DNA from: Craspedostauros australis
Taxonomy: Eukaryota
DNA length: 64,000 nucleotides
Direction of reading: 5' to 3'
Assembly: GCA_030167865.1 (NCBI GenBank)
Contig: JALAGF010003843.1
Coordinates: forward strand, 1 to 64,000
Both the position numbers and the translations under genes were made by a program. Under the pieces are notes generated by a model. It searched no databases. It was given only the letters and a program-made list of their open reading frames with translations, and had not been told where the DNA came from. The first letter of the stretch is position 1; each line of letters begins with the position of its first letter. Below are positions 24,115-53,814 of this stretch, one piece after another.

Positions 24115-24655
24115 TCTTTCGGTGTGGACAGTGACTTGAATTTGGTGGAACTGTTGTACTCGTATGCAGAGTGGTTGAGGGAGGCTCGTGAGGGTTCTAT
24201 TGTGGTTATTGTATTTGTGACTGTCCTCAACCTTTCCTTCTCTCTTCCTGGGCTCCATTCACAGCAACAACAACCACCATGACGCTGTCGAAACCGTCTT
24301 CCACCATCTATCGCCTCTTTCTCTCTCTCTCTCTGACAACGACCCTGCTGTCGCCACGAAGAGGCAACGACAGCGACAACACATCAGACGATGCGACGCA
24401 GCGCAAACGAGCGTGTTGTTTTGTGTGATGTGTTCAAACACGTCATTATCGACTCGTTCGATCCTAAAGGGTATCTTCCCATTCGTGACGTCACTCATGT
24501 CCAATCAAATGAAAAAACAAAGCGAACCGAACGCGACATCTATGGACATTTTCGTTTTGACACCAAGAGACACAAGTGAACATCATGGGAGATGGCGGTT
24601 GTGCAGCGCGGGAGCAGCCCAGAGCCATGAGCTGTGGTGATGAGAAGCCTTGCTG

Positions 24656-28602: not shown

Positions 28603-31600
28603 TTATGAAAACTTTGACAATCCGCCAAGTGCTGCTGCCGCCAGCCGTCGTTGTTCCGGCGTTGTATCCAGCGACACCAACCGAATGACAGCCATGGCCT
28701 GCTCTTTCGATTGGAAGCCCAGCTGTTTCCATTGCGTCTTAACTTCTTTCGGCATGAGCATGGATTCGTATCCAATATCAGACGCTTGGCTTGAAAGGCT
28801 ATCCCTTTTTGCTGCGGATGTGGTGTGTTGGGGGAAATGGCTGGTTGGCTCTTTTGCCGAAGATGCTTGTGGAGACAGCGGTGGTCTGGCGTTGCTGCTG
28901 TCCCTGTTGCGATGCTGCTTGCCATCGTCGCCAGGTGGTAGCGCTGGTGCTGATGCAGACCGCGATGACTTGTGGGAGTCGATTGAAAACCCTGCGCCAG
29001 AACCAACGGAGATCAAGGCCGGTGCAGAGACTGAATCGTCGGAGTGTGTTGGGACTGAAACCACATCACCAGTGTGTACCACGGAGAATCGCCTTGGGGA
29101 CGGTTCCAGATGCACGTTGTCATCGCGACCATCGTAGGTTGCGCTGTCGCTCTTGTTGGTATTGCTGTCAACATTTCCGGAACGGTTGCGCACGCCTGCT
29201 ACATCCCCATTGCCGCCATCACCTTCGAAATCATCCAGGGTAGACGCGTGGCTGCAGCCCTTGGGCTGCGTGCTTTCCTCCGTCGTGTCGGTGAATGCAC
29301 CTGTTGAACCCTCCAAGGGCATACGTGGATTTGCCGAGTCAGTCGAATCCGACGCCGTTGCGAGTCTGGCTGTGTCGTTGGTGTTGCGGTTGTTGTCATC
29401 GTTGACATGGATGATATCGCCCCTGCCGAAGCTCCTGGCGCGCAAGGGCGACGCTTGCTGTGGAGACGCCGTTGGCTTTGGTGATGATTGCCAAGTCTCT
29501 TGTTCAGAACTTTCACGCCTTTCAATGTTGGTGGCAGCCTTCGCAGACGCATTTTCAACAGGCTCATTTACGTGCCTGCAAACCGACACTGCCATGCTGT
29601 TGCCTTCGCTCGTGCGAGGGAATGCGTCGTTGGAAGCGCTCTTTCCATGTTGCTGCTGCTCGTCCGCGTCGCTCGCCATGTCGCTGCTGATGCGAGTGCT
29701 CAGCTTTTGGAGCGATATCGCCGTAGCCTCCTCTGCGGCAGTCAGAGTTTCGGATTCCACCCTCAAGATCGGAGGCATGGAATTGGACCGCACTGGTGAG
29801 TGACGGGGGTCTCCCAGGCTTAAGCGAGCATGGTGGTGGCTGTGATTGGCTTGGTTGTTGGTGTAATTGTAGGCCCCCTGCGCGCCGGTCTGCGCTGCAG
29901 CGAACCTCGTGGATTGGTTGCCGGAGGAATCGTTGCGTGCCTCTTGGACGCGGAGGATCTTGGGCACGAAGATGAGGACCATGACGGTGAAATTCTGCAA
30001 GAAGACGGCGCTGGAACGGACGAAGTAGAACACGTCCGTGTTGTCCTGCACCAAGGCCGAGATGGGAACAGCCAGGACGAGGACCTGGAACATGAACATG
30101 ACCGCCAACGAGATGTAGCTGCTTTCTGCCAAATCCGAGCTGATATCCTTGGTCTGGAAGCACAGGACGAGCGCATACAGAAGACACACGACGTGGAAGG
30201 TCACCAATCCCAGGTAGAACATCCATCCGTCTCCGCCTCCCGTGCAGCTTCCAACGGACTCCGTCGGCGATCCTTGGAAGGTTTCCAGGATTTCGCGCTG
30301 CCATTTCAGAGGGGATACGAGTTGCCACGACAGGAGGATGCCGACCTCGATGGCGAACATGGCCACCATGATGGGCACGACGTCGATCATGCCGACGCGT
30401 TTGCGCTGCATCTGCATGCCGGCCTGGAAGATCATCTTGACGCGCTGGATCTTTGCGAACAGCGCGGAGAATGTCACGACGAAGCCCATGCCGTACAACC
30501 ACGGCACGGCCATGCAGCTGCCATCCGCGAGACCGATATTCTCGTTGGGTTCATCCACCAACATCTGTCCCTGGTCGTTGACCTTGCTGCGGTATCCGGT
30601 CTGTATGCCCATGAAGACGATGGAGAGGCTGGAGACGAGCGTGCCGATGGCGATGAGGGCCAGGAATTGCGGTTGGCTCACTTGCACGGCCCATTTCGTG
30701 CGGTACGCCCACGTCCATCCCAACGCCAAAAGACCGGTGCAAAACAGGAGGGACGTCAGCACGTATCCCAGCATCTTCAGTGAATCCGGAATGTAGTTCA
30801 TATCTTCATCAGGAAACTCGGGACACACCTCGTACAAATTGGCTTGACACACGACTTCGTCGGGCGCTGGTGGTTTGTAGACGTAGTTGGGCCCGCTCTC
30901 GATGGTGAAGTCCAAGATGCGCTGGTTCGTGTACGCGAAGTAGGTGAGGAGGTAGACGGCCAGGTTGCCCTGGAAGAAGGGTTGCTGATCGATCCCGAAC
31001 AGAACGATGCCATCCGCGATGGCCTCGAAGATATCTTCGGATACGTCGAAGGTCGCCACGATCGCGCCGTTGCGCTTGCCTTGGATCATGGCGCGCATGG
31101 GAAGGACCTGCACGGAACCGCACAGCAGCAGACCGATGTTGTTCCAATCGCCGGACGCACCGACCGCGTTTTCGACATCGAGCTGGTACTTGGCGGCGTT
31201 GTCGGCGGCGACCGGAATCCAGCCGCCGTACTGCACCTGATCCGCGCTGTTGAGATTGTGATCACGGATGTGCGTTTCGAATCCGCGACAGCGATCCGCC
31301 GTCGCGCCGTTGCCGAGATCATGATCGAGACAGTATCCCGTCGTCATGCCGGCCTCGATCATGCGTTGGGCGGCGCCGTAGCCCGCGTTGTACTCGTCCA
31401 TGCCAATGTGATGGAAGATGCCGTTGTTGCGAGTGGTGTTCGTGCGCTGATCTGATGCCTCCGTTCCTAGTTGCCGCAGCGCGTAGGCCATGTCCTTGCC
31501 GCTGTTGACGGAAATGACGGGCACGCGCAGCTGCAGGCACTGCTCGATGGATCGCAGCAGCGTTTCGGATGGGATGGAGACGAAGATGCCGTCGACGCCC

Positions 31601-33876
31601 GATGCGCACAAGCTGGCGATGCGCGCCGCCATGAGGTCGTGCACTACCCGGCTGGCCGCATCGATTCTGGCGCCCGTGGAGTTGTCGGCCACTTCGCCAA
31701 CGGCCTGCGGTGCGTAGCGTTCCAGGTCGAGCTGGATGTTGCCGAGGTCGATGGCCGCCTGTTCGGCCGACGAGAAGACGACGTCCCAGAAGGAATCCGT
31801 CGTGACACCGTGCAGGACGCCGCCGATGCGGATCTCCTTCTCGCGGTTCATGCAGTTGCAGGACGATATGAGAGCCGGCTCGAGGGCCGAGCCATGACGG
31901 CGGATGGTCTTCGCGTACTGCGTGGTGAGGTATTCCGGGAAGAGGAGGGTGGGGGAGTAGGTGGAGAAGTCGATGGACGCGCCGCCGGGCGCGGCATCGG
32001 TGAGGCAGACCGGGAAGCTGTCCGTCTGGCATTCGACGTAGCTGTCGGTGGGTATCTTGTCCTGCGTGATGACGTTGGGTCCGACGGAGTAGAAGCCATC
32101 TTGGAGCGGCATGGAGAGCGTGGTGGACGTCGTAGCGTAGAGGGTCGCGAGCACGACGCTCATGGTGGCTTGCAGCGAGTACTGCGGATCCATGCCGAAC
32201 TGCACCTGCCCCAACGTGATGGCCGTGTAGATCTCCTGCGAGACGTCTAGTGCGATGACGGATTGGATCCTGTTCTCCTCTGAGGAGCAGCGGCCGCCGC
32301 GTTGCATCTCCTGCAGGGCGTCGAGCGTGGAGGAGACGCTGGGGAGATCGGCGATGACGACGATGTCGTACTTGCAGAAGATGGAGAACCACAGATCGAG
32401 GGCCTGGACGTTGGAGTCGTCGATCTCGACCCGGATCGTGTGGGCGTCATCTTGGACGACGACCTTGCGGTTGGGTTCCGTGAGAACGATGCGCTCCATG
32501 CGCGTGTCGGGGCTGCGTTTGCGCAGGGTCTCCTGGATGCCTACGTAGCGAGCATGGACGATGTCGCCGTTGGCCGTTCCGGTGCCCGACGTGAATTGCG
32601 CGTTGGAGGGAGGCGTGGGCTCGTAGGTGACGAAGGCGACGTAGTTGATTGGGTCCGCGTTGGTGTTGCCGTCCAGAAGGGTCTCCATGGCGCGGCGTCC
32701 GACGAGGTACTCATCGTGTCCGATCCAGGCGACGATGTTGTTGTCTTCGCGATGCAGCGGCAGGGCGTTCCTGGTGATCCTTGCCGAGTCCGCCTGCGGG
32801 CCTGCGGTTGCGTTGAGGCCGCCGGCATCGTGGTAGTAGGGCACGCTATGCATGCCGAACGTGGGGATCTCCAATTTGGGTCGCTGGTGCGAGTCGCCGT
32901 AGAGGTAGAAGTAGGGCGGCACGGCCATGATGAGCGCGTCTAGGTCGTCGCTGAAGTATTGATCGTTGGCGCGGCGCCATTCGGAGAAGTAGAAGTCGCG
33001 CATGCGCTGCTGCTGCTGCCGCTGCTGCTCTTCGGACAGAGTGGAGGCTTCGAAATTCTGCAGGGCGTTATCGGCCTGCGACTGGTGGTGCGAGGCGATG
33101 CCATCTTGGAAGACGACGAGGTCCAGGTCGACGTGGACGTCGGCAGCGGCCTGCTGCAGGCTGGCGACGATCTGGCGCCACGACAGCTGGCTCCAGTCCT
33201 GCGGCGTGGGATGCAGCAGCGGCGCGGACGAAGAGGCGGACGAGAGGCCCGCCTTGGTGCTGCGCAGCGTGTTCATGAGGGCATCGTGCTCGCTGTGAGT
33301 GAGGGAGGATGGCAGCAGCACGCGCAGTCGAACACTGGACCTGGCGATGCACGGGTCGCAGTCCAATCGGAGGTAGTCCGGTCTCTCTGGTTCAGCGCTG
33401 GGCGATGTCTTGGTTGTTGTTGTCGTCGTTGTTGTTGTTTGGGTATCATCCTGCAACCACCTCCACAGATCTGGTTGTGGTTGTGATTGTGTCTGTGATT
33501 GTGTCTGCGGCTGCTTCAGGAACTTGGGCTCTCGGTGTGGACGTGATGGAGTCGGCGATGCTGAGACACAGCAAGACGAGGCTGCTGCTGATGACAATAG
33601 CGATGATGACAACGGTGATGACAACGGTGATGACAGAAGGATGACCAGCAAGCAGAACATGGTCGGAAAGGAGCCGGTTGTCATGTTGCTCCTTCGTCCG
33701 TGTCGTTCATTAGCACGAGTACTATCCGTTGCATGATATCTGTCACATCGGCTCTCTTCTCTTCTCGTTCTGCTGCCACAAGTGGCTGCGGCTGTGGATG
33801 CAGCGGATAGTCGCACTGCTGCGACGGTGCGCAAAGGCTCCATGGTGCCGTCCTTCGTGATGCCGCTGCTCTCCAT
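28603..33876 (-). CDS. Class C GPCR with two tandem type-I periplasmic sugar-binding domains (paralogue A); start uncertain (ATG 33876 or 33684)
   Basis: Hydrophobic signal-like segment, then PBP motifs VLHGVTTDSFWDVV..AEQAA, GVDGIFVSIP, PVISVNSG, HIGMDEYNAG, RCRGF, ATFDVS and FGIDQQPFFQG. 7TM motifs QVSQPQFL, CMAVPWLYGMGF..FSALFAKIQRV, LAESSYI and LIFVPK. Confidence 0.9.
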   Translation of the reverse strand: MESSGITKDGTMEPLRTVAAVRLSAASTAAATCGSRTRREESRCDRYHATDSTRANERHGRRSNMTTGSFPTMFCLLVILLSSPLSSPLSSSLLSSAAASSCCVSASPTPSRPHREPKFLKQPQTQSQTQSQPQPDLWRWLQDDTQTTTTTTTTTKTSPSAEPERPDYLRLDCDPCIARSSVRLRVLLPSSLTHSEHDALMNTLRSTKAGLSSASSSAPLLHPTPQDWSQLSWRQIVASLQQAAADVHVDLDLVVFQDGIASHHQSQADNALQNFEASTLSEEQQRQQQQRMRDFYFSEWRRANDQYFSDDLDALIMAVPPYFYLYGDSHQRPKLEIPTFGMHSVPYYHDAGGLNATAGPQADSARITRNALPLHREDNNIVAWIGHDEYLVGRRAMETLLDGNTNADPINYVAFVTYEPTPPSNAQFTSGTGTANGDIVHARYVGIQETLRKRSPDTRMERIVLTEPNRKVVVQDDAHTIRVEIDDSNVQALDLWFSIFCKYDIVVIADLPSVSSTLDALQEMQRGGRCSSEENRIQSVIALDVSQEIYTAITLGQVQFGMDPQYSLQATMSVVLATLYATTSTTLSMPLQDGFYSVGPNVITQDKIPTDSYVECQTDSFPVCLTDAAPGGASIDFSTYSPTLLFPEYLTTQYAKTIRRHGSALEPALISSCNCMNREKEIRIGGVLHGVTTDSFWDVVFSSAEQAAIDLGNIQLDLERYAPQAVGEVADNSTGARIDAASRVVHDLMAARIASLCASGVDGIFVSIPSETLLRSIEQCLQLRVPVISVNSGKDMAYALRQLGTEASDQRTNTTRNNGIFHHIGMDEYNAGYGAAQRMIEAGMTTGYCLDHDLGNGATADRCRGFETHIRDHNLNSADQVQYGGWIPVAADNAAKYQLDVENAVGASGDWNNIGLLLCGSVQVLPMRAMIQGKRNGAIVATFDVSEDIFEAIADGIVLFGIDQQPFFQGNLAVYLLTYFAYTNQRILDFTIESGPNYVYKPPAPDEVVCQANLYEVCPEFPDEDMNYIPDSLKMLGYVLTSLLFCTGLLALGWTWAYRTKWAVQVSQPQFLALIAIGTLVSSLSIVFMGIQTGYRSKVNDQGQMLVDEPNENIGLADGSCMAVPWLYGMGFVVTFSALFAKIQRVKMIFQAGMQMQRKRVGMIDVVPIMVAMFAIEVGILLSWQLVSPLKWQREILETFQGSPTESVGSCTGGGDGWMFYLGLVTFHVVCLLYALVLCFQTKDISSDLAESSYISLAVMFMFQVLVLAVPISALVQDNTDVFYFVRSSAVFLQNFTVMVLIFVPKILRVQEARNDSSGNQSTRFAAAQTGAQGAYNYTNNQANHSHHHARLSLGDPRHSPVRSNSMPPILRVESETLTAAEEATAISLQKLSTRISSDMASDADEQQQHGKSASNDAFPRTSEGNSMAVSVCRHVNEPVENASAKAATNIERRESSEQETWQSSPKPTASPQQASPLRARSFGRGDIIHVNDDNNRNTNDTARLATASDSTDSANPRMPLEGSTGAFTDTTEESTQPKGCSHASTLDDFEGDGGNGDVAGVRNRSGNVDSNTNKSDSATYDGRDDNVHLEPSPRRFSVVHTGDVVSVPTHSDDSVSAPALISVGSGAGFSIDSHKSSRSASAPALPPGDDGKQHRNRDSSNARPPLSPQASSAKEPTSHFPQHTTSAAKRDSLSSQASDIGYESMLMPKEVKTQWKQLGFQSKEQAMAVIRLVSLDTTPEQRRLAAAALGGLSKFS

Positions 33877-35467
33877 GATGCTTGTGGTCGAGGTTCTCTG
33901 TGTTCCTTTTGGCGTTCTCGTTGTTGGTTTCGTCTGGCGACACGTTCGAGCGCAAGTACAATCATCAACTGGTGTGGATGTGATTGTGTTTGTGCTCTTG
34001 GATTGGAGGAGCTTCGATGTGGTGCTGATGCTGATCTTGAAGCTGCGCTTGTTCGTGCAATCCGAGTCGCTTTTTGTGGAGTAACTGTAGAGAACGCGCG
34101 TCTGCTCTGCGCACCGCAGATACCCATGCACGGAGCGCGAAGGTTGCGACTACACGGAAGAGGCTAATCGTAATGTGTTAATAGAATAGTTGCACGTGTC
34201 TTTGGCGAGGTTGCTCTCCTCCCATGATGTGAAGAAGAGAAGATGATGGCGCCAAGAGAGCAAGCAACCAAGAAACGGGGAGAGAAGAGACAGCAAGACG
34301 TTGTTTCTGTTTTCTTGGTGGGGTCGGGCGAGTGTTTTACCTGCGTTCGCCTTCGTCGTGTTCGCGGGCGTGGAGAGAGGCAGCGTTGAATTTCGGCGCT
34401 TCGGTGCGTTGTTGTTTGGTTTCGTTTCGCGCAGAAACCGTGTTTGAGCAACCTTGGAAATCTGGCACTGCCCGCTGACGCTTCGCGCTGCCATTGTTTG
34501 TGAACAACGCAGGGCTTGTTGCCCGTGGTTCAATGCCAGTCCCCATCTTACAACGACGCTGTCCTTCATGGTCCTTTTGAGCATAGAGGGTCATTGGTGT
34601 GATATTGTGCTGTTTATAACGGCGCTTTGTGCGCACTCGTGCAGTACAACTAGCGACGGACATAACACCGCTCTTCGCCACGTTGCCACGGAAGGAAGAA
34701 TTTCGTGATCCCGAAGAAGTGGGACTGTTCTGCGAATCGTAACTGGATTATCTGTGGGAGATGTTTGTCTCCATCAACCTTGATCCTTGGGTCTCGGCTG
34801 GGAGTGCTCTTGGAAATGGAGCAAGGCAGAACGATTGAACCGATGTGGTGGCTCCAACGTCGCAGGTAGTGTATTGTTGTGGTGCAGTTGCTCTCTCTCT
34901 CTCTCCTGTTGCGAGGCATGGATGAAGTCCCCTGGTTTCCTCTCTGTTGGCGCAACCCCTGCTGGAAATGCACACTCCGGACAACTATTTGACCAGAATT
35001 CTGTAAAAAAGCCTGTGTGAGTCTTACGGGACAGATAAAAGACATAATCAGATTTTCGCTCTCAATAGTTGCAGATTCATTTGTCCTTGACCAATTCAGC
35101 TAGAACTTCCCATTAACGGACGGTTTCGGACAATTTCGGACATCGAAACAATGTGCCGCAAACACACCTCGTCTGGGAGTTGGAGGAGATATAGAACACT
35201 TCAGGTAGTTTTTCGGAGTCGAAACAGGGCTGAAACGCACCTTGCAACGACCCCATACAAACAGGTCCATGTCGATCCCCAACCCCAACGATGGTGTCAA
35301 CAAAATGCAAGACAGTAACTGGCATTGACTCAAACCTGCAAAGCAGCATATCACATATTGGTGGTGCTCCTATTGAGCTTGATCTTGAACATGCTGTTGG
35401 CTCATCTGTATATCTAGTTCAAAGTGATTCACCCCCCTTGATTGGTCTCCAAAGCTGCTTGACTCGA

Positions 35468-36432
35468 TCAATGTTTGACAGAAAAGAGAGGTGATTCCTA
35501 CTTCATCAATATTTGCGTGATGACAGCCACTGGCGTGAACCTGACACAGTGTTTCTTCAGTAGATGGAGGTAGCGTTGAGCCAAGCATCCAAATTGCTGC
35601 AATCGCCGATTCACTGTTTCATGTCTTGCACGCACGTGCTCCTTTGCCTTCTTCTCTGCAGCTGACCAGTAGTTGTCTGGGGTACGCACTTTGAACGGCT
35701 TGCCTTTGTAGCCACCATCAGCTTCGACCATCTCATCTTCGTCCAACATGTGAATGGAGTTTCTCCTGAAGATTCTCATATCTGGAAACTTTCCACACAG
35801 AAATGGCCCACTGATCCATTCGATATCACCATTTTGAATGGAAATGACAACTTCGTATCGCAAACCAGGTCCTTTAAACTTATGCGACAACCATCCTGAC
35901 CAGAAGACAGCTGGCTCTTCAATTTGGAAGTCCGTTCCATCAACGCTCACTCTGCATGTGCGATTTCGATTGCCAATCATGTGATTCTCCCACTTGATCT
36001 GTGGTTGCAGCAGAGAGAAGTGAGGAGCAAGTTGGGATTGGAATGTGAGTGAATGGATGAGCTGTGCTTTGGTGTTCAGACAAATCACACGGCAATTGGA
36101 ACTTACCCATCTTCCCTTGCCTTCTGCGATCAGGCCAATCGTTTTCCATACCCAAGTGGACAGAGTGGAGCAATCAATTCCAAGTTTGGTTGCCATTGTT
36201 CTCTGAGTGGAGTAGTCCTTCAGAAAGTGTAGTGTCCACAGCAGGTGATGCGGCTTCACTGCTTTGTGGAGCTTGCATTTCTTCCAGTTCAAGCCGCACA
36301 CTGTCAGAGAGACGCCACACTGCGCCTGGACATGTTCGATGATGGCTCTTTTTGAGATGTGATTGGAGACATCATGAAGTACATATCTTGCTGTGGTGAT
36401 AAGTATTGTTCCAGGGAAAGAGAGTCTGACAT
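35468..36432 (-). pseudogene. Decayed PIF/Harbinger (IS5-like, DDE_Tnp_4) transposase with one intron (36106-35999)
   Basis: HTH-region motif PHHLLWTLHFLKDY..TWVW, and catalytic triad motifs VSVDGTD, SHKFKGPGLRYEV, EADGGY and RARHETVNRRL. The 108-nt GTAAGT..CAG intron is in frame. A TAG at 35500-35498 precedes a plausible true end (ESPLFSVKH). The start near ATG 36432 needs a frameshift. Confidence 0.85.
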
Positions 36433-38484
36433 TGTGGAGTGTGAATAGAGGAAGAGAAGCAAGAGAGTCGGCTAAAGATGTGAGTTCGCAGAAAAGTGAA
36501 TTCGCACTCAATGCAAGATGCCAGTGATCAATAGTGCAGCAAGGAGAGCAACAGCAGGAAGTCTGCCATTGATGGTGGAAAGTTCCAACTCGTTTGCGCA
36601 TGGTGCCTTGTGCTTCAAACCGATTGCAAGCTGCAGAGGCTGAATTGCCAAACTGGTTGCATGCCAGCTTCTGAATATTGCTGGAGACTGTTGATCTTGA
36701 TGGCAACACTGGTGGTGAATGTGATGGTGGCAATGGTGGTGATGATAACAATGGAGCATTGTTACTTGTTTGATTCTGTTTTGTGTGAGTTGTGGGTGAT
36801 GGAGTTGTTGATGATACCAACCAAGGACTTGTCTGTGGAGTTGTCTGTGTGGCGCAGAGTGTCGCTGTTGGGCTGGTGGTGATGGAGAACCTCCAATTGT
36901 GTCCTCTACTTTTTCGCTGATTCTTGGGAGCATGTCACTTGGAAACTGGGCGAGGTTTGCGCTGATACGATGGCTGAGGTTTCCAACAAATGGGTTGTTG
37001 CTGATGATTGGCGACTGGCAATTGGAAGGTTGTTGTCGTTGGAGCGCAAGCCAGAAACTGCAACCTGCAAATCACAACGAGCATCATGTGAAAGTCTGGA
37101 GTTGTCTGGTGTCTGTGTGTGTTGGTGTCCACTCTGTGCAAATCCAGCTCCAGGTTGATCCTGTCTATTGGCTCTTGGCAACAGCAGCGCAGACAAAGCG
37201 GGACTCCTGCGCGCCTGCTGCTGCTGGGATTGGCGAGTCACTGACTCGCCACGAATCCCGGCGCTCTGGAATGCAAGAAGAGCATCATGGCACTTTTCTT
37301 GCAGCGTGTCCATTACAGCTTCCGGAGGGACAGAACAGAGCAACGCACCTCGGAATGATTGTTCAGCAATGTCCGTTATGCTCACAGGTGCTCCGAAACG
37401 TAATGTCAGTACTCCAAAGTCCTCAGATATGAATACATTAAATGCTGTTGGGTTCATTCGTTTGCGCACGCGCGAATGTGCAAAATGCATGCTCGCCTTT
37501 GCACAGCGGAATTGAATTGCACACATACAAATGAACCTGAAAAGCATACTGCAAGCACACATCTTCGCTCATTGTCAACGAAGTTGCAGCAAATCATGAT
37601 CTGAAGTGAAGTGCGAGAGTTTGTTGGAAATGACTCAAGAAACCAGTCATTTTGTTTCATCCCAGTACCGAAATGAAGGCCATTTCTTCATTCCACTGGA
37701 AGCCTGAAGGCGATTTCTTCCTGCCAATACCAAAATGAAGCGCAGACCCTTGACAATAACATGCATTGTGAGCAGGCTTGCTTGCGAAGTCCAGAATTGA
37801 ATCTTGGAAGGCACACCAGTGCAGCTAAGCACATGTACATCAAAATTAACTTCATGCTACCACCCAAGATGAGCTTGCTCTCAATTGCAACCATGTCAAT
37901 GTGGGTTGTGTTGGTCGTTTGACACACGAACCCAGGTGACATTTGGCCTGACAGCTTTGAGAAAACACTTCCCGTTTTGACGGTTGCCAATGTTCCACTG
38001 ACAGAAGGTGACGATGGTGACGATGGTGATGCCTCCCACACAACCTCTCATAGTCTCGCTCACAAAACAGCGATCAGCGACCTTTGCTTCCCACTTCACA
38101 TTTTCAGCCATGATCCGCCAGCAGCAGCAATGCCTTCTTCACAGGACTGCAAAAATGCAACAATACCACCATGGCACAGTGTAAGGGTAATTATGGCAAG
38201 CAACCATGAGCCTGCAACTTGGTGGGTTTGATGTGGTTTGAAGATGGGCTTGCATATGTGTGCAACAGAGCCGATAACAGAAAGAATATAAGCTGCCTGC
38301 AGCTCTGCTCCTGAAAGTGAAGGACTTGTCCAGAGCCAGTCAGGCTATCTCGTGAGCATCGTGTGCTCCTGGAAATGAACCAATGCTTGATCAAGCACCC
38401 ATACTCATTTTTCTTCTGTCTTTCCTTTCATGTGCACAATTCATCAACACTGATCACAAGCACAACCTCCACATCTCATAAAAC

Positions 38485-40016: not shown

Positions 40017-42848
40017 TGCGGTTATAGCTTGCGATATATTATTGGTTCGTGGGCTGAAAAGATCAAGATGCCGACAGTGAAACTTCACTGTATGACAGCA
40101 AGGAGGCACGTAAATGTGCATGACGGTTTGGAGTGGTTGGCGGTCCTGCGCCGTGTGTGCTGTTTGCTCATATCATGAAGCAGCGCTGCAAAGGTTATTG
40201 TTTTGTAATTTCCACAGCCTCCCTACTCTAATTGGCTGCGTCATTCTCCCAATACGACTTTCTGTCTCATGGTGAATGTTTTGTGCCTTTTGGGGACACG
40301 CTCCCTGAGATGGCCTGTTCTCAACCGGCTTGAGACTACTTGTTGTTGAGAGCCAGGCAAGGCAGAGTGAACTAATTGATCGATGTGAACTGGAGTGAAG
40401 TTTGCAATAGGTTGTGAATTACTATCGAAGTGGATTATGATGAGAGGTTGCCCAACTTGAGAAGTCATAGAAAAGTCAAGCATGCAAAGCCATGGGATAA
40501 GCCGTCCTTTGGTAGAATCAAACAGAACAGCACCTACTCCTGTAGAGCAGTTGATGCATATCCTTTCTTTGGAGATCTGACCCGAATCTTCTGATTCAGA
40601 GCAAGGAAGAGCTGTTCCGGTCTTGCTGAGATCTACTATCTGATTGGTTGCAGTAACAGATGACAGAAGGAAGCAATGTACTTGCATATGGAGGGCTTCT
40701 TGTGTCAGAGCAGATGGTGATGGACAGAGTGCAAGATCAGATCATTGTGAGAGCATAGCAAGTGTCTGATTTTGCACCCTGTCTTGCTCGGTTATCCACT
40801 GTGTCCTTGTTGCACATTTCTTGCATGTCAGTGAGTCCTGGTGTCAAGCAAGCAAGTTCATTTTGCTCACATGAGGACCCACTTACTTGGACTCAAAGCT
40901 CTAACACGGTTGTGGGGATAGTGTGTCCCAACTCTCATCGTTGTCCCGCCACCAACCAGAGGCATAGCACGAAAAAACGCTGTTTGCTGCTAGATCGTCG
41001 CAGCGGTACTCACTATCTGGCTAACGATGCCTTCGGCAGAAAATGCATGTCAAGATCACTGTGGGCGAGCACCAAAATGATCGTTGAGAGCGGAAGGGGA
41101 TGATCTTGAACTTAGCCCCTTCCCAGCGTGTGCTACCGTCACTATGTGCGCATAATTCTGTGCTGTTGTCACAGCATTCGCAACCGTCCAATCCACGGAG
41201 GCCATTTTATTTCTTCGGCGGAGTTTCTGTTGCCGTCGCGCGATTGTTCATAAATGCCCCAGTTGAGTTCGTCCGTACTTATTGACATTCGTTTCAATCA
41301 TGTCATCCACGATGACGTAGTGTCGTGTACGTTGCAAACTTCTCCTGGCGCGCAGGTGTCACTGGGAGGCTGTGTGAATAACGCGTCGAAGGGGAGGGAG
41401 TGAAACAGAGAAGAGCCAAAGCATGGTCTTGTGTGGACAGCTCAGGGCCATCTGTCTATTTGTACTAATTAATCTGATGCGTTCAATCGTGTCGCCGACG
41501 ACAGCGATACCTCTTGCCTTCCAGACAAGAAATGGGAAGATACTTTTTGTTCTTGGGAGGATTCGCACACAGTAATTGCCGATAGTACGCAGTCAGTTAC
41601 CGCTGTGCCACAGCGCTCTCGCTCAGCCGTTGCATGTCCAAGAACTCAACAGGGAGTAATGGCAATCGCTCGCTACAACGAATGAGGCTTTATCGTGTCT
41701 ACCCGCAGTTGTCATCCTTGAGATCGCGAAGAGGAGGTTGTTCGTCTGTGTTGTTGTTGATTGACGCCATTGTGTCATGGGGTCAGTCGGCTTTCATTGC
41801 CAGTATCCGAGTCGAAGCAGCATCATTTGCACTTCGATGTGACAAGACGGAAGCATTGTGGTTGCTGGTGAACATTGGAAGGTATAATACCAAGGTGGAG
41901 ACGTTCCAATCTTTGTATTCGTATTCGTATTAATAGTCGTACATCTTCTTGTGGGCTACCGCGTGAAGGAGAATAGTTGTTGATACCAATACTACTACTC
42001 TCTGTCTGGTGAGAGCGTACGAAGAGTCTTCGTAGATCGACGCAGCTGAATCTGTAGAGAGAGATGCAGAGAGTGCTAGTATAATAGATATGATAGTTAT
42101 CCGCATGGCGTCGCCAAGATTATGTAGAGTAGAGAAGAGAAGAGCAGGTTGTGCTCACCAGGGGCGAAGAGGACTCCAAAGTCGGCACTCTGCTACGCTC
42201 TGTTGGAGAAAGCTGTGGCGAGTATTCTCCACGTGCGCCAACAACGGCGCACAGCTCCCTGGATTGTGATTCTCATTGGCGCGTGGTCTTGACACAAAGA
42301 ACCGGAGGCAGAACAGCAAAAAGACCGTTTCCATTCCCCACGGATGCGCAAACACAAAAGAGGGCAACGAGGGCAACCACAGCTTTTCGTTGTTGGGATT
42401 CTTCACACACCGCACAGGCACTAAGAAGCACGTTGGCTTCGTCGCCTCTGCAAGCAGCTTTCATCACAAGACACGACCACCGACACGGATACGAACGGCA
42501 TCAAACCATAGTCGCATCATAGAATACACCGTACCATACGTGTAGGAGGAGAGCGTAGTGCAAGGCAGCGCAAGGAGAGGCAAGACAAGAAGCCGAAGTC
42601 ACGCGCGGCAACCCAAGAACATTATTTACGTTAGATGCTGAGACTCTCTTGCAACGACAACCTCTTTGGCGACCTCTTTGACGACCCCTTCATCAGCTTC
42701 AGCAGCTTCGTGGATAATAGAGGGACGCAAGCACTCTCCTAATACTCTGCTCCATCCATCGTATCAGATCATATTGTATTGTATTGTATCATACAATACT
42801 GTTATTGATAATAATCTGCTGCGTCCAGTTGAACTGCATTGCAAAAAG

Positions 42849-45800
42849 ATGAAGCCAAAAGGACAGACGATGGGGCAATCGAGATCAGATCCACGCAGGC
42901 GGCAACGGCAACGGCAGCAACATGACCAGTGTCAGCAACAACAGCAGCAACAACAACAACACCAGTCGCTGCTCGAACAGAATCGGGAGGAGATGAGATC
43001 GCGTCGTGCGTCCCGCAGCGTGCTGTCGAGTGCACGCATTCCAGAGGCATGTCCCTGTGCTCAATCATCCCACGATGACCAAGCTCATGCTCAATCATCC
43101 CATGCCTTCAGCACCGACAGATGCGTGCAGGCAGATGAAGACAGTTGCGGGAGGCGACGTCTGCAAGCAACGAAGCTGCCACAAGCACGAGCACCAACAG
43201 ACGCAGACGTACAACATTCAACATGCCATCCGTCGCATCGCCACCGGCATCGCCGCCTGTATCGCACGCCAAACTCCGAGATAAGGATCAGACGATGGTC
43301 GATCCCATTCCTGCGAGTCATGCTCATCTCGGCCATCGTGCACCAATGGATTCTGGCAACATCGCTGGTGGCCGCCTCGGTGGAATCCGCAACGGGCTTC
43401 CTCCCGCTCACCCTCGACTGCGACCCCTGCATCGACCGGTCGCTGTACCAGATCCGGGTCATCCTGCCGGCCTCGCCATCGCCCTCCGCCGAGACCGACA
43501 CCTTCTCCTACGTCGACTACGATTGGAACGCCCTGCACTGGCGCCAGATCCGCTCCGCCATGGACCAGCTGCAATCCGACTTCCGCATCCGCCTCGAGTA
43601 CAGAATACCCACGGGCATCGACGCGGGCTCGCGCCTCGAGCTCACCAACTACTACCGCACGCAGCTGCAGAACGCCAAGCAGGACTACTTCATCTACCAG
43701 TTCGAGAAGGAGCTGTACGACCGCTCCACGACGTCATCCTCCGATGCCGACAGCCGCCGCGCGTGGACGAGGACGAGGAACAACGCCGTGAGGCGTGACG
43801 ATCCAAACGCGTCCAAGCTGCCGCAGACGTCGCTGTCGGACAACCAGCGCATCGACGCGCTCTTCATCGCCATTCCGCCCTACCAGTCGCAGATCATGGA
43901 CATGCTCTACCAGGATCTCGACATCACGGACTCGCTGCGCGCCACGTTGCCGCATCTCTTCGCGCGGCCCGATCGACCCATCGTGCACAACACGGTCCTG
44001 CCCATCTTCGGATTTCATTCGCTTCCGTCCTATCCCTCCGCCATCGGGGTGCCGCTACCGCAAGCGCAACCTGCAAAGGCTACAACGGATGCAACGGATG
44101 CAACGACACCAGCTGACGACGTCAAGGCCGTCGTGTCGTCCAAGCTCATGTCCTGGATTGGATACTCGGATCATGATATCGGGAAGCTCGCCATGCAGAC
44201 CATCATCGACCGTCATCCCGAGGCCAACGACATGCTCTTCATCGCCACGCATCGATCCATCCAGAACGTCAATGTCTCCTCGTCGGCCTCCGCGTACATC
44301 TCCAACCTCGTGCAAGCGCGTTTGGATGGAATGGACCTCGTGAGGCGCCAGCACAACGATGCGATCACGCTGGATCCCCTCGATCTGCAACCCATCGACG
44401 TTAATGCCGATCAGCGCAAGGACGACGTGCAAGCGTCCATCAAGAACAAGCTCTTCGATGCCCACTACAATCGCTGCCGCTACGATGCCGTCTTCGTCGT
44501 CGATATCGACAGCCTCGATGCCGTCCTCGCCGTCATGGACGACGACGTGCGCGCGCGATGCACCGACACCGTCGTCATCGCGCTCGATATCGGCACGGTC
44601 TCGCCCGTCTACTACGATGCTATCCAACGATCGCACCTGCACTACGGCATCCAGGTCTCCAACACCTACATCGAAACGGCCCTGTCCATGATCTTCGCCA
44701 TCTTCTTCATGACGGCCGGACAGCAGATCGCGGTGCCGCGCGAACGCAACGCCTACGTCACGGGGCCCAAGCTCATCGCGGCGCCCACGGCGGACGATAC
44801 GCAAGCCTTCCTCGAGTGTCAGTTGAATGCCTTTCCCGTGTGTCCGGGGCCGTCGGCCGTCAACGTCGAAGAGCCGACGCTGGACACCCAGTCGCTGCGG
44901 CGCAGTGTCGATACGGAGACGCGTGCAAGCTTCGTCAGCACGAACAACGAGGGAGACACGGAGAGCCTCGTGTGGCCCAACGTCGTGTCGCCGTGTCCCT
45001 GTCTGCAACGATCCAACGAGATCCGCCTGGGAGCCGTGCTGCACGGCGTCACGACGGACTCCTTCTGGGATCTCGTCTTCGACTCCGCGCAACAGGCCGC
45101 GCTCGATATGGGCACCATCCAGCTCGAGATGGATCGCATCACGCCGCAGGCCACAGCCACCATGGTGCACGAGCTCATGGCGGCCAGGATCCAGAATCTG
45201 TGCTCATCCGGCGTCGACGGCATCATGGTCACCATCCCGTCCGATGTCGTTCTCCCAGCCATAGAGTACTGTCTGCAGTCCTCCATCCCCGTCGTCTCCA
45301 TCAACAGCGGACTCGACACGGCGATGCGTCTCAATCAAAAGTACAACACCAACGCGACGGCGTCGGGCGAGTCCCTGTTCCTCTACCACATCGGCATGAA
45401 CGAATTCAATGCCGGGTATCTGGCGGGACAGCGCATGATCGAGGAAGGTGACATGAAGTACGGCTACTGCATCGACCACGACGATGGCAACAGCGCCACC
45501 TTCGAGCGCTGTCGGGGATTTGAACAGGCGATTCTGGACAGCGACAGGAATGTCATCTTCAAGGCCAGAATCGCAATCCCGCCCGACAACACGGTGGAAT
45601 ACAAGCTCGTCGTCGAACAGAGCGTGCAGAACGATTTCAAGGACACCGGCATTCCTGCCAATTGGGATAAGATCGGCTTTTTGCTGACGGGATCGGTGCA
45701 GGTGCGCGCCATCCGAAGCACGCTGGGGTATGGTGTCGGTGTCGGAACGGAAGCTGTCACGGCTCCCATTGATTCCGAACTCCCGGAGAATCGCGACGGT

Positions 45801-48248
45801 GCAATAGCTGCGACATTCGACCTCTCCGCCGAGGTGTACGATGCGATCGAGGAAGGCATCATCCTGTTCGGCATCGACCAGCAGCCGTACTACCAGGGCA
45901 ACCTCCCCATCCACCTCCTCACCTACCATGCAATCACGCAACAGCAGGTCTTGGACTTCCAGATGGAAAGCGGCCCCAGCTTCGTCTACTCGCGCCCGGC
46001 CGAAAGCACGGCACAGTGCCAGGCCAACATGTACGAGGTGTGTCCCAACCGCCCGTACCAGGAGTACAACTACATCTCCGACGCCTACTTCACCTTTGGC
46101 TACGTGCTGTGCGGTATTATCTACGCGATTTGCATCGCGGGGTTGATCTGGACGCGCTGCAACATCCATCTCTGGGTCGTGCAAGTCAGCCAACCGCTGT
46201 TCCTCGCCTTCATCGCCATCGGCACAATGATATCCGCCACCTCCATCGTCTTCATGGGCAACCAGACGACGTACCGCAATGAGCAGGATTATTTGGGCAA
46301 CCTGCTGCAGGACGAGACGAATCCTCAGGTCGCATTCGTCGATGCCAGCTGCATGGCGGTGCCGTGGCTGTACGGTATGGGATTCGTCATCACCTTCTCC
46401 GCGCTTCTGGCCAAGATTCAGCGCGTCAAGATGATCTACGAGGCCGGCATCCAGATGAAACGCCGGCGTGTGGGCATGATCCATGTCTTCCCCATCATGT
46501 TCGGCATGTGCGTCATCGAGCTGGCGATCCTGTTGTCGTGGCAGCTGATATCGCCGTTGCGGTGGGGACGAGAAGTCCTGAAGGAAGAAGGCGGTTTCGT
46601 CGTCGAGTCCATCGGCAGCTGCTCAAGCGGCGACGACGGGTGGATGTTCTACCTGGCGCTGGTCACATTCCACGTCATGTGCCTGATCTACGCCCTCGTG
46701 CTGTGCTTCCAGACCAAGAACATTGGTTCCGACCTGGCAGAGAGCAACACCATCTCATTGGCGGTCATGTTCATGTTCCAGGTCTTGGTACTCGCGGTCC
46801 CTATCCTGGTGCTGGTCCGCGACACAGCCAACGTGTTCTTCTTTGTCCGCGCTGTGGCCATCTTTTTGCAGAACTTCGCAGTCATCGTCTTGATCTTCGC
46901 ACCCAAGATCATGCGGACCATCTGGGTGGAGGACACCGTCCCAAAGTCTAGCTATCACAAGAGCAGCATGAACAGGCAGCATTCGATGCACAGCGTTGCA
47001 TCATACGGTGGCGGTGGCGGGAACAGGCCCGCCATATCCCGCGCAGCCTCCTTCACATCCGCCAAAAGTGGCATGTACGGCGGTGCACCTTGCTTTGATC
47101 AATCTCAGTTCGGAGGCGCGAACAACAACAACAGGCAGAAGACGACAGTGAAATCATCTTACATGAACGATCTTCATCTTTGCCACGATTCCTTCCAGGA
47201 GCAGATTCGTCGCAAGCATGCCCAAAATCGTCTACGCGGATTGGTTAGCAGCTCGAGCGACGAGGATGAATGTGGCAACATCAGGAGCGGCGCCGACAGC
47301 CATTGCGATGGCAACTATGGCAATGACTACGAGTACGATGATGATGACATGGACGACTCGAGGTCGTTCTATGACGAAGGAGCAGAAATGACCAACCACC
47401 CACGCCATCACCAGAGCCAACCGAGCGGGACAACAACCGAATGCAGCAGCGACAGCCGTTCGCATCTGGCGGAAGGGCCAACATCGACGGCCTTCTTCAT
47501 GAGGCAGCTGTCTTTGCAGAATTCCAGCCACCACCACGGAAAGGATGAACCCATCAAGGATTGGGGGACATTCAGCTCCATGTACTACAAGTCCGTTGCA
47601 TTGCGGAATCACGTCATCCATGAAACGATCGGCACAGCCGATGACGGTGATGACGCCCATGGAAATGAAAACAATGGCCATCGCGAACACAGCGAATCCA
47701 ACAACATCAACAACAACAACGACGACCACAGCGTTGGTCCCAGCGTCAGCAACGATGAAATAGAGGAGCAAAAGATGTCGAGTGGGACCATCGTTACGAA
47801 CATCACAGGCACGAGATACTTTTCACGTGCATCCTCGACATCCAAGAACCATGAACGCCGCAGCGGCGTTTCTGCTGCTGGCTATGGCGGGAATGTGCGT
47901 GAAGAGGAACAACCCATCATGAGTCCCCTTCCGCAACGAATGATCTACGATTCAGAGTCCTGCGGGTCGTTGGATTATCTGGATGGTAGTGAAGAACAGC
48001 AACCGCTAAAACAGGGCCAAAACCTGTCAACTGATGTTACGCCGGACGACAGCATGCACTCAGAGAACGGTTACGAAACCATGTACATGCCAACCGAAAT
48101 CACGTCGCAGTGGCAAAGCCTTGGATTTGAATCGTTGGAGCAGGCTCAGATGGCGCTGCAATTGATGTCGCTGGTCACGACACCGAAGACGCGACGTTCG
48201 CTGTTGCTGAGGGACAACGCCGACGACACGGACACTGTCGACGCTTAA
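42849..48248 (+). CDS. Class C GPCR with two tandem type-I periplasmic sugar-binding domains (paralogue B)
   Basis: Same architecture as paralogue A, with long near-identical motifs: LHGVTTDSFWD, SGVDGI, HIGMNEFNAG, FGIDQQPYYQGNL and CMAVPWLYGMGFVITFSALLAKIQRVKMI. First ATG is at 42849; the track start is a TTG. Confidence 0.9.
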   Translation: MKPKGQTMGQSRSDPRRRQRQRQQHDQCQQQQQQQQQHQSLLEQNREEMRSRRASRSVLSSARIPEACPCAQSSHDDQAHAQSSHAFSTDRCVQADEDSCGRRRLQATKLPQARAPTDADVQHSTCHPSHRHRHRRLYRTPNSEIRIRRWSIPFLRVMLISAIVHQWILATSLVAASVESATGFLPLTLDCDPCIDRSLYQIRVILPASPSPSAETDTFSYVDYDWNALHWRQIRSAMDQLQSDFRIRLEYRIPTGIDAGSRLELTNYYRTQLQNAKQDYFIYQFEKELYDRSTTSSSDADSRRAWTRTRNNAVRRDDPNASKLPQTSLSDNQRIDALFIAIPPYQSQIMDMLYQDLDITDSLRATLPHLFARPDRPIVHNTVLPIFGFHSLPSYPSAIGVPLPQAQPAKATTDATDATTPADDVKAVVSSKLMSWIGYSDHDIGKLAMQTIIDRHPEANDMLFIATHRSIQNVNVSSSASAYISNLVQARLDGMDLVRRQHNDAITLDPLDLQPIDVNADQRKDDVQASIKNKLFDAHYNRCRYDAVFVVDIDSLDAVLAVMDDDVRARCTDTVVIALDIGTVSPVYYDAIQRSHLHYGIQVSNTYIETALSMIFAIFFMTAGQQIAVPRERNAYVTGPKLIAAPTADDTQAFLECQLNAFPVCPGPSAVNVEEPTLDTQSLRRSVDTETRASFVSTNNEGDTESLVWPNVVSPCPCLQRSNEIRLGAVLHGVTTDSFWDLVFDSAQQAALDMGTIQLEMDRITPQATATMVHELMAARIQNLCSSGVDGIMVTIPSDVVLPAIEYCLQSSIPVVSINSGLDTAMRLNQKYNTNATASGESLFLYHIGMNEFNAGYLAGQRMIEEGDMKYGYCIDHDDGNSATFERCRGFEQAILDSDRNVIFKARIAIPPDNTVEYKLVVEQSVQNDFKDTGIPANWDKIGFLLTGSVQVRAIRSTLGYGVGVGTEAVTAPIDSELPENRDGAIAATFDLSAEVYDAIEEGIILFGIDQQPYYQGNLPIHLLTYHAITQQQVLDFQMESGPSFVYSRPAESTAQCQANMYEVCPNRPYQEYNYISDAYFTFGYVLCGIIYAICIAGLIWTRCNIHLWVVQVSQPLFLAFIAIGTMISATSIVFMGNQTTYRNEQDYLGNLLQDETNPQVAFVDASCMAVPWLYGMGFVITFSALLAKIQRVKMIYEAGIQMKRRRVGMIHVFPIMFGMCVIELAILLSWQLISPLRWGREVLKEEGGFVVESIGSCSSGDDGWMFYLALVTFHVMCLIYALVLCFQTKNIGSDLAESNTISLAVMFMFQVLVLAVPILVLVRDTANVFFFVRAVAIFLQNFAVIVLIFAPKIMRTIWVEDTVPKSSYHKSSMNRQHSMHSVASYGGGGGNRPAISRAASFTSAKSGMYGGAPCFDQSQFGGANNNNRQKTTVKSSYMNDLHLCHDSFQEQIRRKHAQNRLRGLVSSSSDEDECGNIRSGADSHCDGNYGNDYEYDDDDMDDSRSFYDEGAEMTNHPRHHQSQPSGTTTECSSDSRSHLAEGPTSTAFFMRQLSLQNSSHHHGKDEPIKDWGTFSSMYYKSVALRNHVIHETIGTADDGDDAHGNENNGHREHSESNNINNNNDDHSVGPSVSNDEIEEQKMSSGTIVTNITGTRYFSRASSTSKNHERRSGVSAAGYGGNVREEEQPIMSPLPQRMIYDSESCGSLDYLDGSEEQQPLKQGQNLSTDVTPDDSMHSENGYETMYMPTEITSQWQSLGFESLEQAQMALQLMSLVTTPKTRRSLLLRDNADDTDTVDA

Positions 48249-51932: not shown

Positions 51933-52372
51933 CTTGTTGCGATCACAATGCTATTGCAATGCTATTGCTATGACAGAAGCCTGGGATTGTCTATTGGCAA
52001 TGTGAGTGGAGCGTTGCTGTCAAGTGCCCTCTAGAGAGAGAGTGAGTCTATGAAGGGTGTGTGGACACATGCCTTTTCTTGTTTGTTTTGCCTTGTCACG
52101 CGCCAAGACGACGCAGGTGTCGTTGTTGTGTTCGCGTTCTTCCTCTTCTTGCTTGTTCATGTGGAGAAATCGTATCCAAAAGGTCATTCTCAGAATCAAA
52201 TCCATTTTAATCCCGTCAAGAGTCAAGACATTTCATCTTTTTTGTTCACATGTGGGTACGCAAACTAATCAAGAGAAGGGTATGAGCAACATTTGAATGG
52301 AATTGCGTTGGATGCTATTATACCTACGGAGCCGCATTTGGAGTGTGCAACAGAGTAGAGTAAGCGAACCAA

Positions 52373-53526: not shown

Positions 53527-53814
53527 GAGCCACAAGTCTTCCTCCATCTGCACTACGAGCTGCTACACTAAATCATAGAATACCAATACCCGTTTCTCTG
53601 CCACGCGCTGATGCCGAAGCGCAGCTGAGAGGGACCTGTTGTAGTCGTATGACAAGGAGAGAAAGTCGATGATCTGAGCCATCAGGACAAGCACCTATAG
53701 TCGCAGCTCGTGGTAGGACACCGTATCAGAGTGCACAAGACATCACAGGCAGACGAAGTGGCAGCCAAGAGAGCACATTGCCTGCGTTGCATTGCATTGC
53801 AAGACGCGAGGAGG

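Follow-up and report, generated by a model that had tools for sequence, protein, structure and literature searches.

Among the class C G protein-coupled receptor (GPCR)-like proteins of diatoms, N-termini of the sugar-ABC (ATP-binding cassette) type were noted by Port et al. 2013 (PMC3727952). Later work reported that overexpression of GPCR1A shifts P. tricornutum to a surface-colonising morphotype (Fu et al. 2020, PMC7452957), and GPCRs had been implicated in diatom sexual cues (Basu et al. 2017, PMC5485032). In the available parts of PMC3727952 and PMC7452957 the diatom receptors are described as possessing a single periplasmic binding protein (PBP) domain and N-termini shorter than usual, and these parts hold no mention of a tandem of such domains, of a cysteine frame or of an inositol-type ancestry; likewise, the available parts of the diatom receptor literature cited here name no ligand for a diatom class C receptor. 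By these descriptions, the pair of receptor genes reported in this work is set apart. It is located on a stretch of 64,000 nucleotides from Craspedostauros australis (assembly GCA_030167865.1, contig JALAGF010003843.1, positions 1 to 64,000 of the forward strand), which is referred to as the window, and it encodes receptors whose extracellular part is built from two sugar-type PBP modules in tandem. Full-text literature searches, supplements aside, retrieved no description of a tandem Peripla_BP_4 ectodomain, of its cysteine frame or of its inositol-type ancestry, and the expectation of an earlier, sequence-only reading of this DNA that the tandem architecture had not been characterised before holds for the literature so searched.

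Two further groups resemble the window pair in that a solute-binding domain of bacterial type was independently joined to a class C seven-transmembrane (7TM) domain, namely gut-fungal class C receptors, which carry type II solute-binding protein (SBP) domains (PMC5168858), and a cluster of Bmp-type class C receptors from Evosea in the ESM Atlas. Both differ from the window pair in the class of binding protein that was recruited, and no tandem is reported for them in the available part of the sources. Bacterial sensors such as the hybrid two-component sensor BT1754 (2X7X), XylFII-LytS (5XSJ) and TorT-TorS (3O1H), all found among the fold matches described below, also use a module of the Peripla_BP_4 or Peripla_BP_1 type for signalling, but these are single-module systems with a kinase output.

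The two genes were read to encode tandem-PBP class C receptors, in which a ligand would be bound by the cleft of the membrane-proximal module and the signal would pass via a 7TM dimer to a G protein. Taken as a whole this reading is given a probability of roughly 0.6, whereby the architecture and the ancestry of the tandem receptor are held to be next to certain. Each gene encodes, in this order, a signal peptide, two cysteine-framed Peripla_BP_4-type modules (in the following the distal and the proximal module, as seen from the membrane), a GABA-B-like 7tm_3 domain and a long tail. The features of both genes are located as follows:

28603..34131, minus strand: receptor gene A (P0001), open frame of 1842 codons
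31987..33372, minus strand: distal module of gene A (residues 254-715), diverged Peripla_BP_4-type fold
31870..31986, minus strand: inter-module linker of gene A (residues 716-754), predicted to be disordered
30802..31869, minus strand: proximal module of gene A (residues 755-1110), intact Peripla_BP_4 of the inositol/rhizopine binding-protein type
29932..30801, minus strand: class C 7TM domain of gene A (residues 1111-1400), 7tm_3 with E 4.8e-34
28606..29931, minus strand: cytoplasmic tail of gene A (residues 1401-1842), low complexity
42666..48248, plus strand: receptor gene B (P0002), open frame of 1860 codons
43407..44861, plus strand: distal module of gene B (residues 248-732), more strongly diverged than its counterpart in gene A
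44985..46064, plus strand: proximal module of gene B (residues 774-1133), intact Peripla_BP_4
46065..46934, plus strand: class C 7TM domain of gene B (residues 1134-1423), 7tm_3 with E 6.1e-28
46935..48245, plus strand: cytoplasmic tail of gene B
28642-28824, minus strand, and 48027-48209, plus strand: C-terminal motif of about 55 residues, found as second BLASTP segment, E 2e-12

Both genes are intronless open reading frames (ORFs) in head-to-head orientation which are translated without stops, and the coordinates that the sequence-only reading had given for them were confirmed. The encoded proteins share 40% identity over 1241 aligned residues. Judging from the translations, gene A likely starts at M150 (position 33684) or M158 (position 33660), which are favoured because a hydrophobic, signal-like segment comes next, and gene B likely starts at M219 (position 43320). 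That the two frames are non-functional, be it as pseudogenes, as annotation artefacts of GC-rich DNA or as a bacterial contaminant fused in the assembly, is held to be highly improbable. The 5' ends and start codons of both genes are deduced, but the two frames of more than 1840 codons are colinear with dozens of relatives over the distal module, the proximal module and the 7TM domain, and they retain the residues which are invariant in the family. A bacterial contaminant is ruled out by the presence of eukaryote-specific cysteine frames and of a class C 7TM domain within the same frame.

Several comparisons bear on the nature of the ectodomain. In Pfam searches neither ANF_receptor nor Peripla_BP_6 was matched in either receptor at E<=1, and Peripla_BP_4 was found in both proximal modules with 59.3 bits (gene A) and 57.4 bits (gene B) at a cut-off of 35.1. 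When the PDB was searched with a profile of 12 full-length family members, class C receptors were matched via the 7TM domain only and never via their flytrap; the proximal module matched 4RU1 with E 1.2e-31, followed by other sugar binders at 1e-15 or worse, and the distal module matched 3ROT, 2IOY and ribose-binding proteins. An AF2 model of the ectodomain (857 residues) reached a predicted local distance difference test score (pLDDT) of 79.6 and a predicted template modelling score (pTM) of 0.85, whereby its Foldseek and VIA matches are headed by 4RU1, and for each module the best 50 rows of the fold searches are filled by 4RU1 and other CUT2-type or sugar-type proteins. An ANF/LIVBP reading of the ectodomain is hence ruled out by the Pfam, PDB profile and fold searches, and the modules are of the sugar type, as had been claimed. 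The accompanying wording that they stand instead of a Venus flytrap is in need of a narrower form: the ANF subtype has been replaced, but Peripla_BP_4 is a type I bilobed flytrap fold as well and the fold itself is kept. As the modules are fused in frame to the 7TM domain, they are not free proteins serving an ABC transporter.

Each module is framed by cysteines. In gene A the distal module is opened by C258/C261 (DCDPCIARS) and closed by C701/C709, and the proximal module is opened by C758/C760 (CNCMNR) and closed by C1095/C1103. Of the 51 family modules of each kind, 45-50 carry the frame cysteines, as compared to none of 16 bacterial relatives (0/16). The frames described by the sequence-only reading are therefore real and conserved, whereas the closing spacing is C-x7-C (C-x6-VC) and not C-x5-VC. 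The two cysteine pairs probably clasp the N and C termini of each module. Between the frames of gene A lies a gap of 48 residues from cysteine to cysteine, as compared to about 6 residues between the module envelopes in relatives like P0004, and within the model the pLDDT falls below 50 at residues 459-501, i.e., over 43 residues of linker. Towards the membrane about 14 residues lead from the last frame cysteine to transmembrane helix 1 (TM1), with no cysteine-rich domain in between.

The proximal modules of genes A and B share 56-57% identity. The coordinates proposed for them earlier, 31860-30825 and 44994-46046, span C758-C1103 in P0001 and C777-P1127 in P0002, and the motifs quoted along with them were all recovered from the translations, i.e., HGVTTDSFWDVVFSSAEQAA, DGIFVSIP, PVISVNSG, HIGMDEYNAG, RCRGF, FDVS, IDQQPFFQG and SGP. 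The best solved match of the proximal module is 4RU1 (ACEI_1806), a myo-inositol binding protein which the available part of PMC10747050 refers to as 'a verified myo-inositol transporter'; the predicted model was aligned to 4ru1_C over 282 of 286 residues with Z 20.5 and an rmsd (root-mean-square deviation) of 2.3. In NCBIfam, both proximal modules match a single entry, NF052284 (rhizopine catabolism binding protein), with 107.4 and 115.9 bits, scores that lie far under the equivalog cut-off of 420 and hence do not allow substrate specificity to be transferred; two bacterial proteins encoded within iol clusters stay below this cut-off, too (334.7 and 346.6 bits). By profile, fold and tree, 4RU1 and the NF052284 proteins are closest to both modules, the NCBIfam match being that of the proximal ones. 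Inositol and rhizopine binding proteins differ from the receptor modules in that they are free lipoproteins or periplasmic proteins which dock to an ABC permease, consist of one module and lack the frame cysteines.

A site table of 40 positions was compiled for the comparison with the 16 bacterial relatives, from which the 4 frame cysteines and 4 positions that are unconserved in bacteria were set aside, leaving 32 positions at which at least 12 of the 16 bacterial proteins agree. The proximal modules carry the bacterial residue at 31 of the 32, the sole exception being N978, which is D in 15 of 16 bacteria; P854 is among those matching, its residue being common to only 12 of the 16 relatives. 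Retained are H774, G775, D779, F781, W782, N876, G878, R947, D1029, D1048 and Q1049/Q1050, a set common to 14-16 of the 16 bacterial relatives, and the pair C934/C948 is likewise common to proximal modules and bacterial relatives. We take W782, N876, R947, D1029 and Q1049 to be the counterparts of F16, D89, R141, D215 and Q235 of the ribose-binding protein. On the basis of the alignment and of these contacts, the retained residues would sit in the cleft, and the proximal module is regarded as the probable sensing site, albeit with a good deal less certainty than its ancestry.

The genomic surroundings of the bacterial relatives point to inositol as well. The nearest non-eukaryotic relatives of the modules are bacterial lipoprotein-type binding proteins, and 29 loci were obtained when the GTDB was scanned with one of them (P0150), distributed over Actinomycetota, Chloroflexota, Deinococcota and Gammaproteobacteria. 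The gene of Halomonas socia is flanked on one side by IolB (KduI/IolB), a GFO/IDH/MocA dehydrogenase and an RpiR regulator and on the other by an ABC permease, an ATPase and a PfkB-DUF2090 kinase; the bacterial relatives adjoin BPD_transp_2 and ABC_tran genes, as in the operon at locus L018. A homologue of IolB was found within 5 kb at 16 of the 27 full loci and a homologue of IolC/DUF2090 at 18 of the 27.

Trees were calculated with FastTree (140 modules), with IQ-TREE in quick mode under LG+G4 (72 modules) and as a rooted IQ-TREE run with outgroup. Both IQ-TREE runs comprise 25 of the 59 two-module proteins, hand-picked for spread. The outgroup consists of 12 other Peripla_BP_4 paralogs from two bacterial genomes, i.e., 12 of 24 fetched loci were used, whereby the high-GC Streptomyces loci (uncertain frames), L037, L041 (identical to the L018 gene) and L044 were dropped. 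A distal clade and a proximal clade were obtained with FastTree and IQ-TREE alike. In the rooted tree, 16 iol-type proteins and 56 eukaryotic modules form a clade (100 starred) as opposed to the 12 paralogs, and the 56 eukaryotic modules are monophyletic (98 starred) on a stem of 0.25. The eukaryotic clade splits into the distal modules (91) and the proximal modules together with single-module forms (99 starred), therefore suggesting one acquisition that was followed by one old tandem duplication. The rooted tree hence fits the earlier proposal that the receptor was built by fusing and duplicating a bacterial domain. By profile, fold and tree, the modules are assigned as descendants of the binding-protein subfamily that serves bacterial inositol/rhizopine ABC importers, and from the distribution of the family the transfer would have run from a bacterium to a diatom ancestor.

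This ancestry bears on the ligand, for which a cyclitol-like compound is proposed only tentatively. A serious contender, if short of even odds, is a ligand that is neither a cyclitol nor a simple sugar but, for instance, AI-2 (autoinducer 2), an amino sugar or another exometabolite, so that the link to inositol would not have been inherited. Peripla_BP_4 specificity shifts readily, and the fold lists span binders of ribose, allose, glucose, arabinose, fructose and galactofuranose as well as LuxP, an LsrB-like AI-2 binder and TorT; the distance to the NCBIfam cut-off and the long stem of the eukaryotic clade fit such a shift. Against it stands that the inositol/rhizopine subfamily is nearest by every measure, with 4RU1 at E 1.2e-31 versus values of at least 1e-15 for others, NF052284 as the sole NCBIfam match and the starred grouping with iol-type proteins in the tree, and that the residues common to this subfamily are retained in the proximal module.

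The distal modules of genes A and B show no Pfam match even at E<=10, and that of gene B shows no NCBIfam match either. Nevertheless, hhalign aligned 12 distal to 12 proximal modules end to end over 341 columns (99.9%, E 3.9e-32), BLASTP matched the C-terminal ~85 residues of distal and proximal module (E 1.4e-9), and in relatives including P0004, P0005, P0008 and P0009 the best Peripla_BP_4 stretch of Pfam falls on the distal module, which in P0004 (residues 50-304) is matched over the full length of the family. By sequence comparison each distal module is identified as a diverged copy of the proximal module. Folded alone, the distal module of gene A reached a pLDDT of 74.5 and a pTM of 0.79; this model was run against 48,161 representative PDB chains with no prefilter, with 4ru1_A as best match (Z 22.2, rmsd 3.0, 272 of 288 residues), whereby the best 50 rows are all sugar-type PBPs, LacI-family proteins or type I sensors (TorT, LuxP). 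With 462 (gene A) and 482-485 residues (gene B) the distal modules are longer than those of 9 of 10 complete relatives (308-379), the tenth, P0003, having 450 residues; the ~130-150 extra residues were placed in low-confidence loops. In sum, the description of the distal module as having the same fold, strongly diverged and with insertions, stands.

The two distal modules of the window are sisters (98-99 starred) but share just 31-32% identity, and their end branches measure 0.73 (gene A) and ~1.0 (gene B) as compared to 0.3-0.47 for the proximal modules. Given by proximal numbering, the changes found in them are H774P, G775S/A, N876H, G878V/L, H908W, C934F, C948Y/L, G1005D, F1028L, Q1049P/S and G1055A/T. 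Among the 51 distal modules of the family, H774 is retained in 43, N876 in 41, G878 in 47 and Q1049 in 41. As assigned via the alignment, the window's distal modules have thus lost cleft residues that most relatives retain. One degenerate module, as had been proposed, is consequently a description that applies to the lineage of the window and not to most relatives, which keep the motifs in both modules; correspondingly, the conserved set of pocket residues is kept in the proximal module, whereas the distal one has lost several of them.

Sensor kinases of the BvgS type possess two tandem periplasmic flytraps ahead of a membrane signalling domain, and in BvgS the membrane-distal flytrap is not known to bind the effector. 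These flytraps are type II folds on a histidine kinase and have no homology to the tandem cassette, but they may serve as a working analogy for a sensing proximal and a capping distal module. In the window's receptors the distal module, which has lost cleft residues and gained loops, would more likely act as a structural or regulatory cap than as a second site of the same kind. The opposing idea that both modules are ligand sites, with the distal one re-specialised for another or larger ligand or for a protein so that the receptor integrates two cues, appears unlikely. Two-site sensing may well be ancestral, as the cleft motifs occur in both modules of most members; in addition, the window's distal modules are predicted to fold as bilobed PBPs with high confidence in the core, they keep the equivalents of W782, D847, R947, D1029, G1080 and P1081 as well as the four frame cysteines, and the open frames of both paralogs are intact despite their long branches. 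However, at least nine positions that are conserved in bacteria and in the distal modules of the family were replaced in both paralogs, among them residues of the DQQ motif and of the loops that follow strands 1 and 4, and the low identity between the two distal modules resembles relaxed constraint more than a new common specificity. The cap is accordingly retained as the preferred role of the distal module.

The 7TM domains were assigned to 7tm_3 with 118.6 bits (gene A) and 98.6 bits (gene B) at a cut-off of 33.5, covering the profile from position 4 or 5 to 251 of 251. Their best PDB match is GABA-B2 (6w2x_B, E 1.7e-36), whereby GABA-B1 was matched, too. Over 12 family members C1206 and C1296 (top of TM3 and extracellular loop 2, ECL2), R1230 (TM3) and P1390-K1391 (TM7) are invariant, and K1227 (inner TM3) and E1336 (TM6) nearly so. 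According to the available part of PMC3727952, class C hallmarks are cysteines at the top of TM3 and in ECL2, a Lys/Arg at inner TM3, an acidic residue in TM6 and a PK motif in TM7. The metazoan GABA-B receptor (GABBR1/GABBR2), being the best 7TM match, shares all four of these hallmarks with the window's receptors, and in both the flytrap is attached via a short stalk with no cysteine-rich domain. The difference resides in the ectodomain, as the single ANF/LIVBP flytrap of GABA-B binds an amino acid, whereas the window's receptors possess two Peripla_BP_4 modules. At the other end, the tails of both receptors terminate in the motif GYE.M..P.E....W..LGF.S.E.A......SL.TTP..R, for which no Pfam family was matched and which, by means of a motif hidden Markov model (HMM), was found in 9 of 39 members with complete 7TM, mainly within the subclade nearest to the window's genes.

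Given this likeness, the two neighbours might form an obligate heterodimer like GABA-B, in which one subunit senses and the other couples or carries it to the surface, an arrangement that is rated as improbable. The 7TM domains are nearest to the GABA-B subunits, the genes are adjacent, divergent and sister paralogs, and both tails end in the common conserved motif. Co-folding of the two proximal modules gave an ipSAE of 0.57, which is rated as weak support, as compared to 0.23 for the best control. Among benchmark cases, 51 of 78 solved complexes and 2 of 108 mismatched pairs attained this mark, but only 5 of the 78 scored 0.60 or less, as did each of the 4 mismatches that passed. Between runs at least 38% of the contacts agree, and the partner pLDDT is at least 78. 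However, the co-fold cannot separate a heterodimer from a homodimer, and close relatives of a true partner pass as well. Both proximal modules carry the same cleft residues and hence do not show the split into binder and non-binder of GABA-B1 and GABA-B2, the genes are separated by 8.5 kb and a transposase-like ORF with no shared promoter evident, and the duplication is lineage-specific, while relatives with the same architecture occur in apparently single genes. In every tree genes A and B are paralogous sisters for both modules (98-100 starred), therefore indicating a lineage-specific duplication, and by this placement they are assigned as recent, divergently oriented duplicates.

For the tandem receptor the following working is proposed. 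The cleft of the membrane-proximal module would bind a small polyhydroxylated compound, for which a cyclitol or a sugar-like molecule is most likely. Closure of this module would then be relayed to the 7TM domain of a receptor dimer by the short, cysteine-clasped stalk, which is ~14 residues long, and the dimer in turn would switch on a heterotrimeric G protein. Several points weigh against this proposal or parts of it. The ligand, the dimerisation and the G protein coupling are deduced, and the cleft positions were assigned via alignment and the contacts of the ribose-binding protein. The identity of the modules to 4RU1 amounts to just 16-24%, and the NF052284 scores fall far short of the equivalog level. 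The distal module, which may bear on signalling, is joined to the proximal one by a linker of 43 residues that is predicted to be disordered. As to the ancestry, 11 of the 27 bacterial loci have no IolB nearby, and 10 of the 16 IolB-positive loci (L009-L018) belong to one group, composed of Halomonas, Billgrantia, Salinicola, Vreelandella and one unclassified Pseudomonadota metagenome-assembled genome (MAG), which reduces the independent lineages to about five; moreover, the trees are short or quick runs with no bootstraps, and their outgroup stems from two genomes only.

The cassette extends far beyond the window. With the ectodomain of P0001 as query, 1.84 billion representative proteins were scanned in full, whereby 711 matches passed E<=1e-3, among them 319 with E<=1e-10 and 122 with E<=1e-30. 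Architectures were sorted among 172 proteins with HMMs for the distal module, the proximal module and the 7TM domain: 40 proteins possess all three (the window's two included), 67 possess distal and proximal module with no 7TM domain, and 15 possess one module and a 7TM domain. The latter were considered as one-module receptors and rejected, as all 15 start inside the module (HMM position at least 15 at residues 1-21) and are truncated models; genuine single-module 7TM receptors were absent from the best 150 matches of the tandem-query search. At least 12 of the 67 two-module proteins with no 7TM domain are complete, consisting of a signal peptide, the cysteine-framed tandem cassette and a single C-terminal hydrophobic anchor (P0014, P0020, P0025, P0032, P0034, P0040, P0042, P0044, P0045, P0049, P0050 and P0151); the cassette hence also occurs tethered outside of GPCRs. 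P0084 and P0156 have an N-terminal membrane segment, the tandem cassette and then a further large region, which in P0084 holds an SBP_bac_3 domain (type II, amino-acid-type). Single-module eukaryotic relatives were found as well (P0105, P0120, P0144 and P0147), each with signal peptide, cysteine frame and C-terminal hydrophobic tail, and all of these group within the proximal-module clade. In P0146 and P0153 the two modules of each protein are mutual sisters (100 starred) and lie near the bacterial group; by their placement these two are assigned as independent, more recent tandem duplications.

Relatives with a named source come from Cylindrotheca closterium, a Bacillariaceae MAG and Seminavis robusta, all three of which we take to be raphid pennate diatoms. 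In the ESM Atlas a cluster of 79 members combines 7tm_3 and Peripla_BP_4 and is labelled 'commonest Bacillariophyta', and the tandem cassette is present in dozens of receptor clusters. The novelty that had been placed in the tandem thus holds insofar as no published description was found, while the cassette itself is widespread in the family and not specific to the pair. The family was already present, and automatically labelled, in sequence databases; new here are that the cassette is recognised and traced to bacterial proteins of the inositol type, that it is seen to be reused on further anchors, and that its distal module has decayed specifically in the lineage of the window's gene pair.

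The remaining features of the window are the following:

3-2153, plus strand: third class C receptor ORF, running off the left end, 7tm_3 with E 3e-37
9867-18422, minus strand: frame of 2851 amino acids with a Myb DNA-binding domain
24644-28123, plus strand: frame of 1159 amino acids with a dual-specificity phosphatase domain
35498-36934, minus strand: DDE_Tnp_4 (Harbinger/PIF-type transposase) ORF, E 2.5e-6, within the spacer between the receptor genes
51003-51950, minus strand: Peptidase_C14 (metacaspase-like) ORF
53701-55155, plus strand: Nucleotid_trans glycosyltransferase-like ORF

The third receptor ORF shows 29% identity to P0001 across the 7TM domain, and the ~200 residues that are visible before its TM1 show no match to Peripla_BP_4, hence it is placed in a different class C subfamily. 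The spacer of 8.5 kb between the two receptor genes is AT-richer, and a bidirectional promoter shared by genes A and B is unsupported given this distance and the DDE_Tnp_4 ORF in between. One RNA run (share 0.10) yielded a contig of 193 bases that is identical to 48017-48209 and uninformative on expression; the other pieces from this run are short and mostly non-specific.

In its most far-reaching form, which is considered improbable as a whole, the proposal would be that diatoms took up an inositol/rhizopine-type protein once, duplicated it and clasped it with cysteines, hence obtaining a portable sensor that was placed on 7TM domains, on single-pass anchors and in fusions with amino-acid-type domains and that would serve the sensing of cyclitols or other exometabolites, with the window pair, its distal modules degenerate, acting as a GABA-B-like heterodimer. 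The ancestry of the proximal module together with its retained residues makes cyclitols and related compounds the first ligand candidates. By this analysis, a second branch of the type I binding-protein superfamily, distinct from ANF, came to be used by the class C 7TM chassis, and this in the form of a tandem. The reuse of the cassette on other membrane anchors is relevant to the question of how bacterial parts are put together into eukaryotic receptors. If the most far-reaching form of the proposal holds true, diatoms would possess a dedicated cell-surface sensing of cyclitols or of related bacterial or algal exometabolites.

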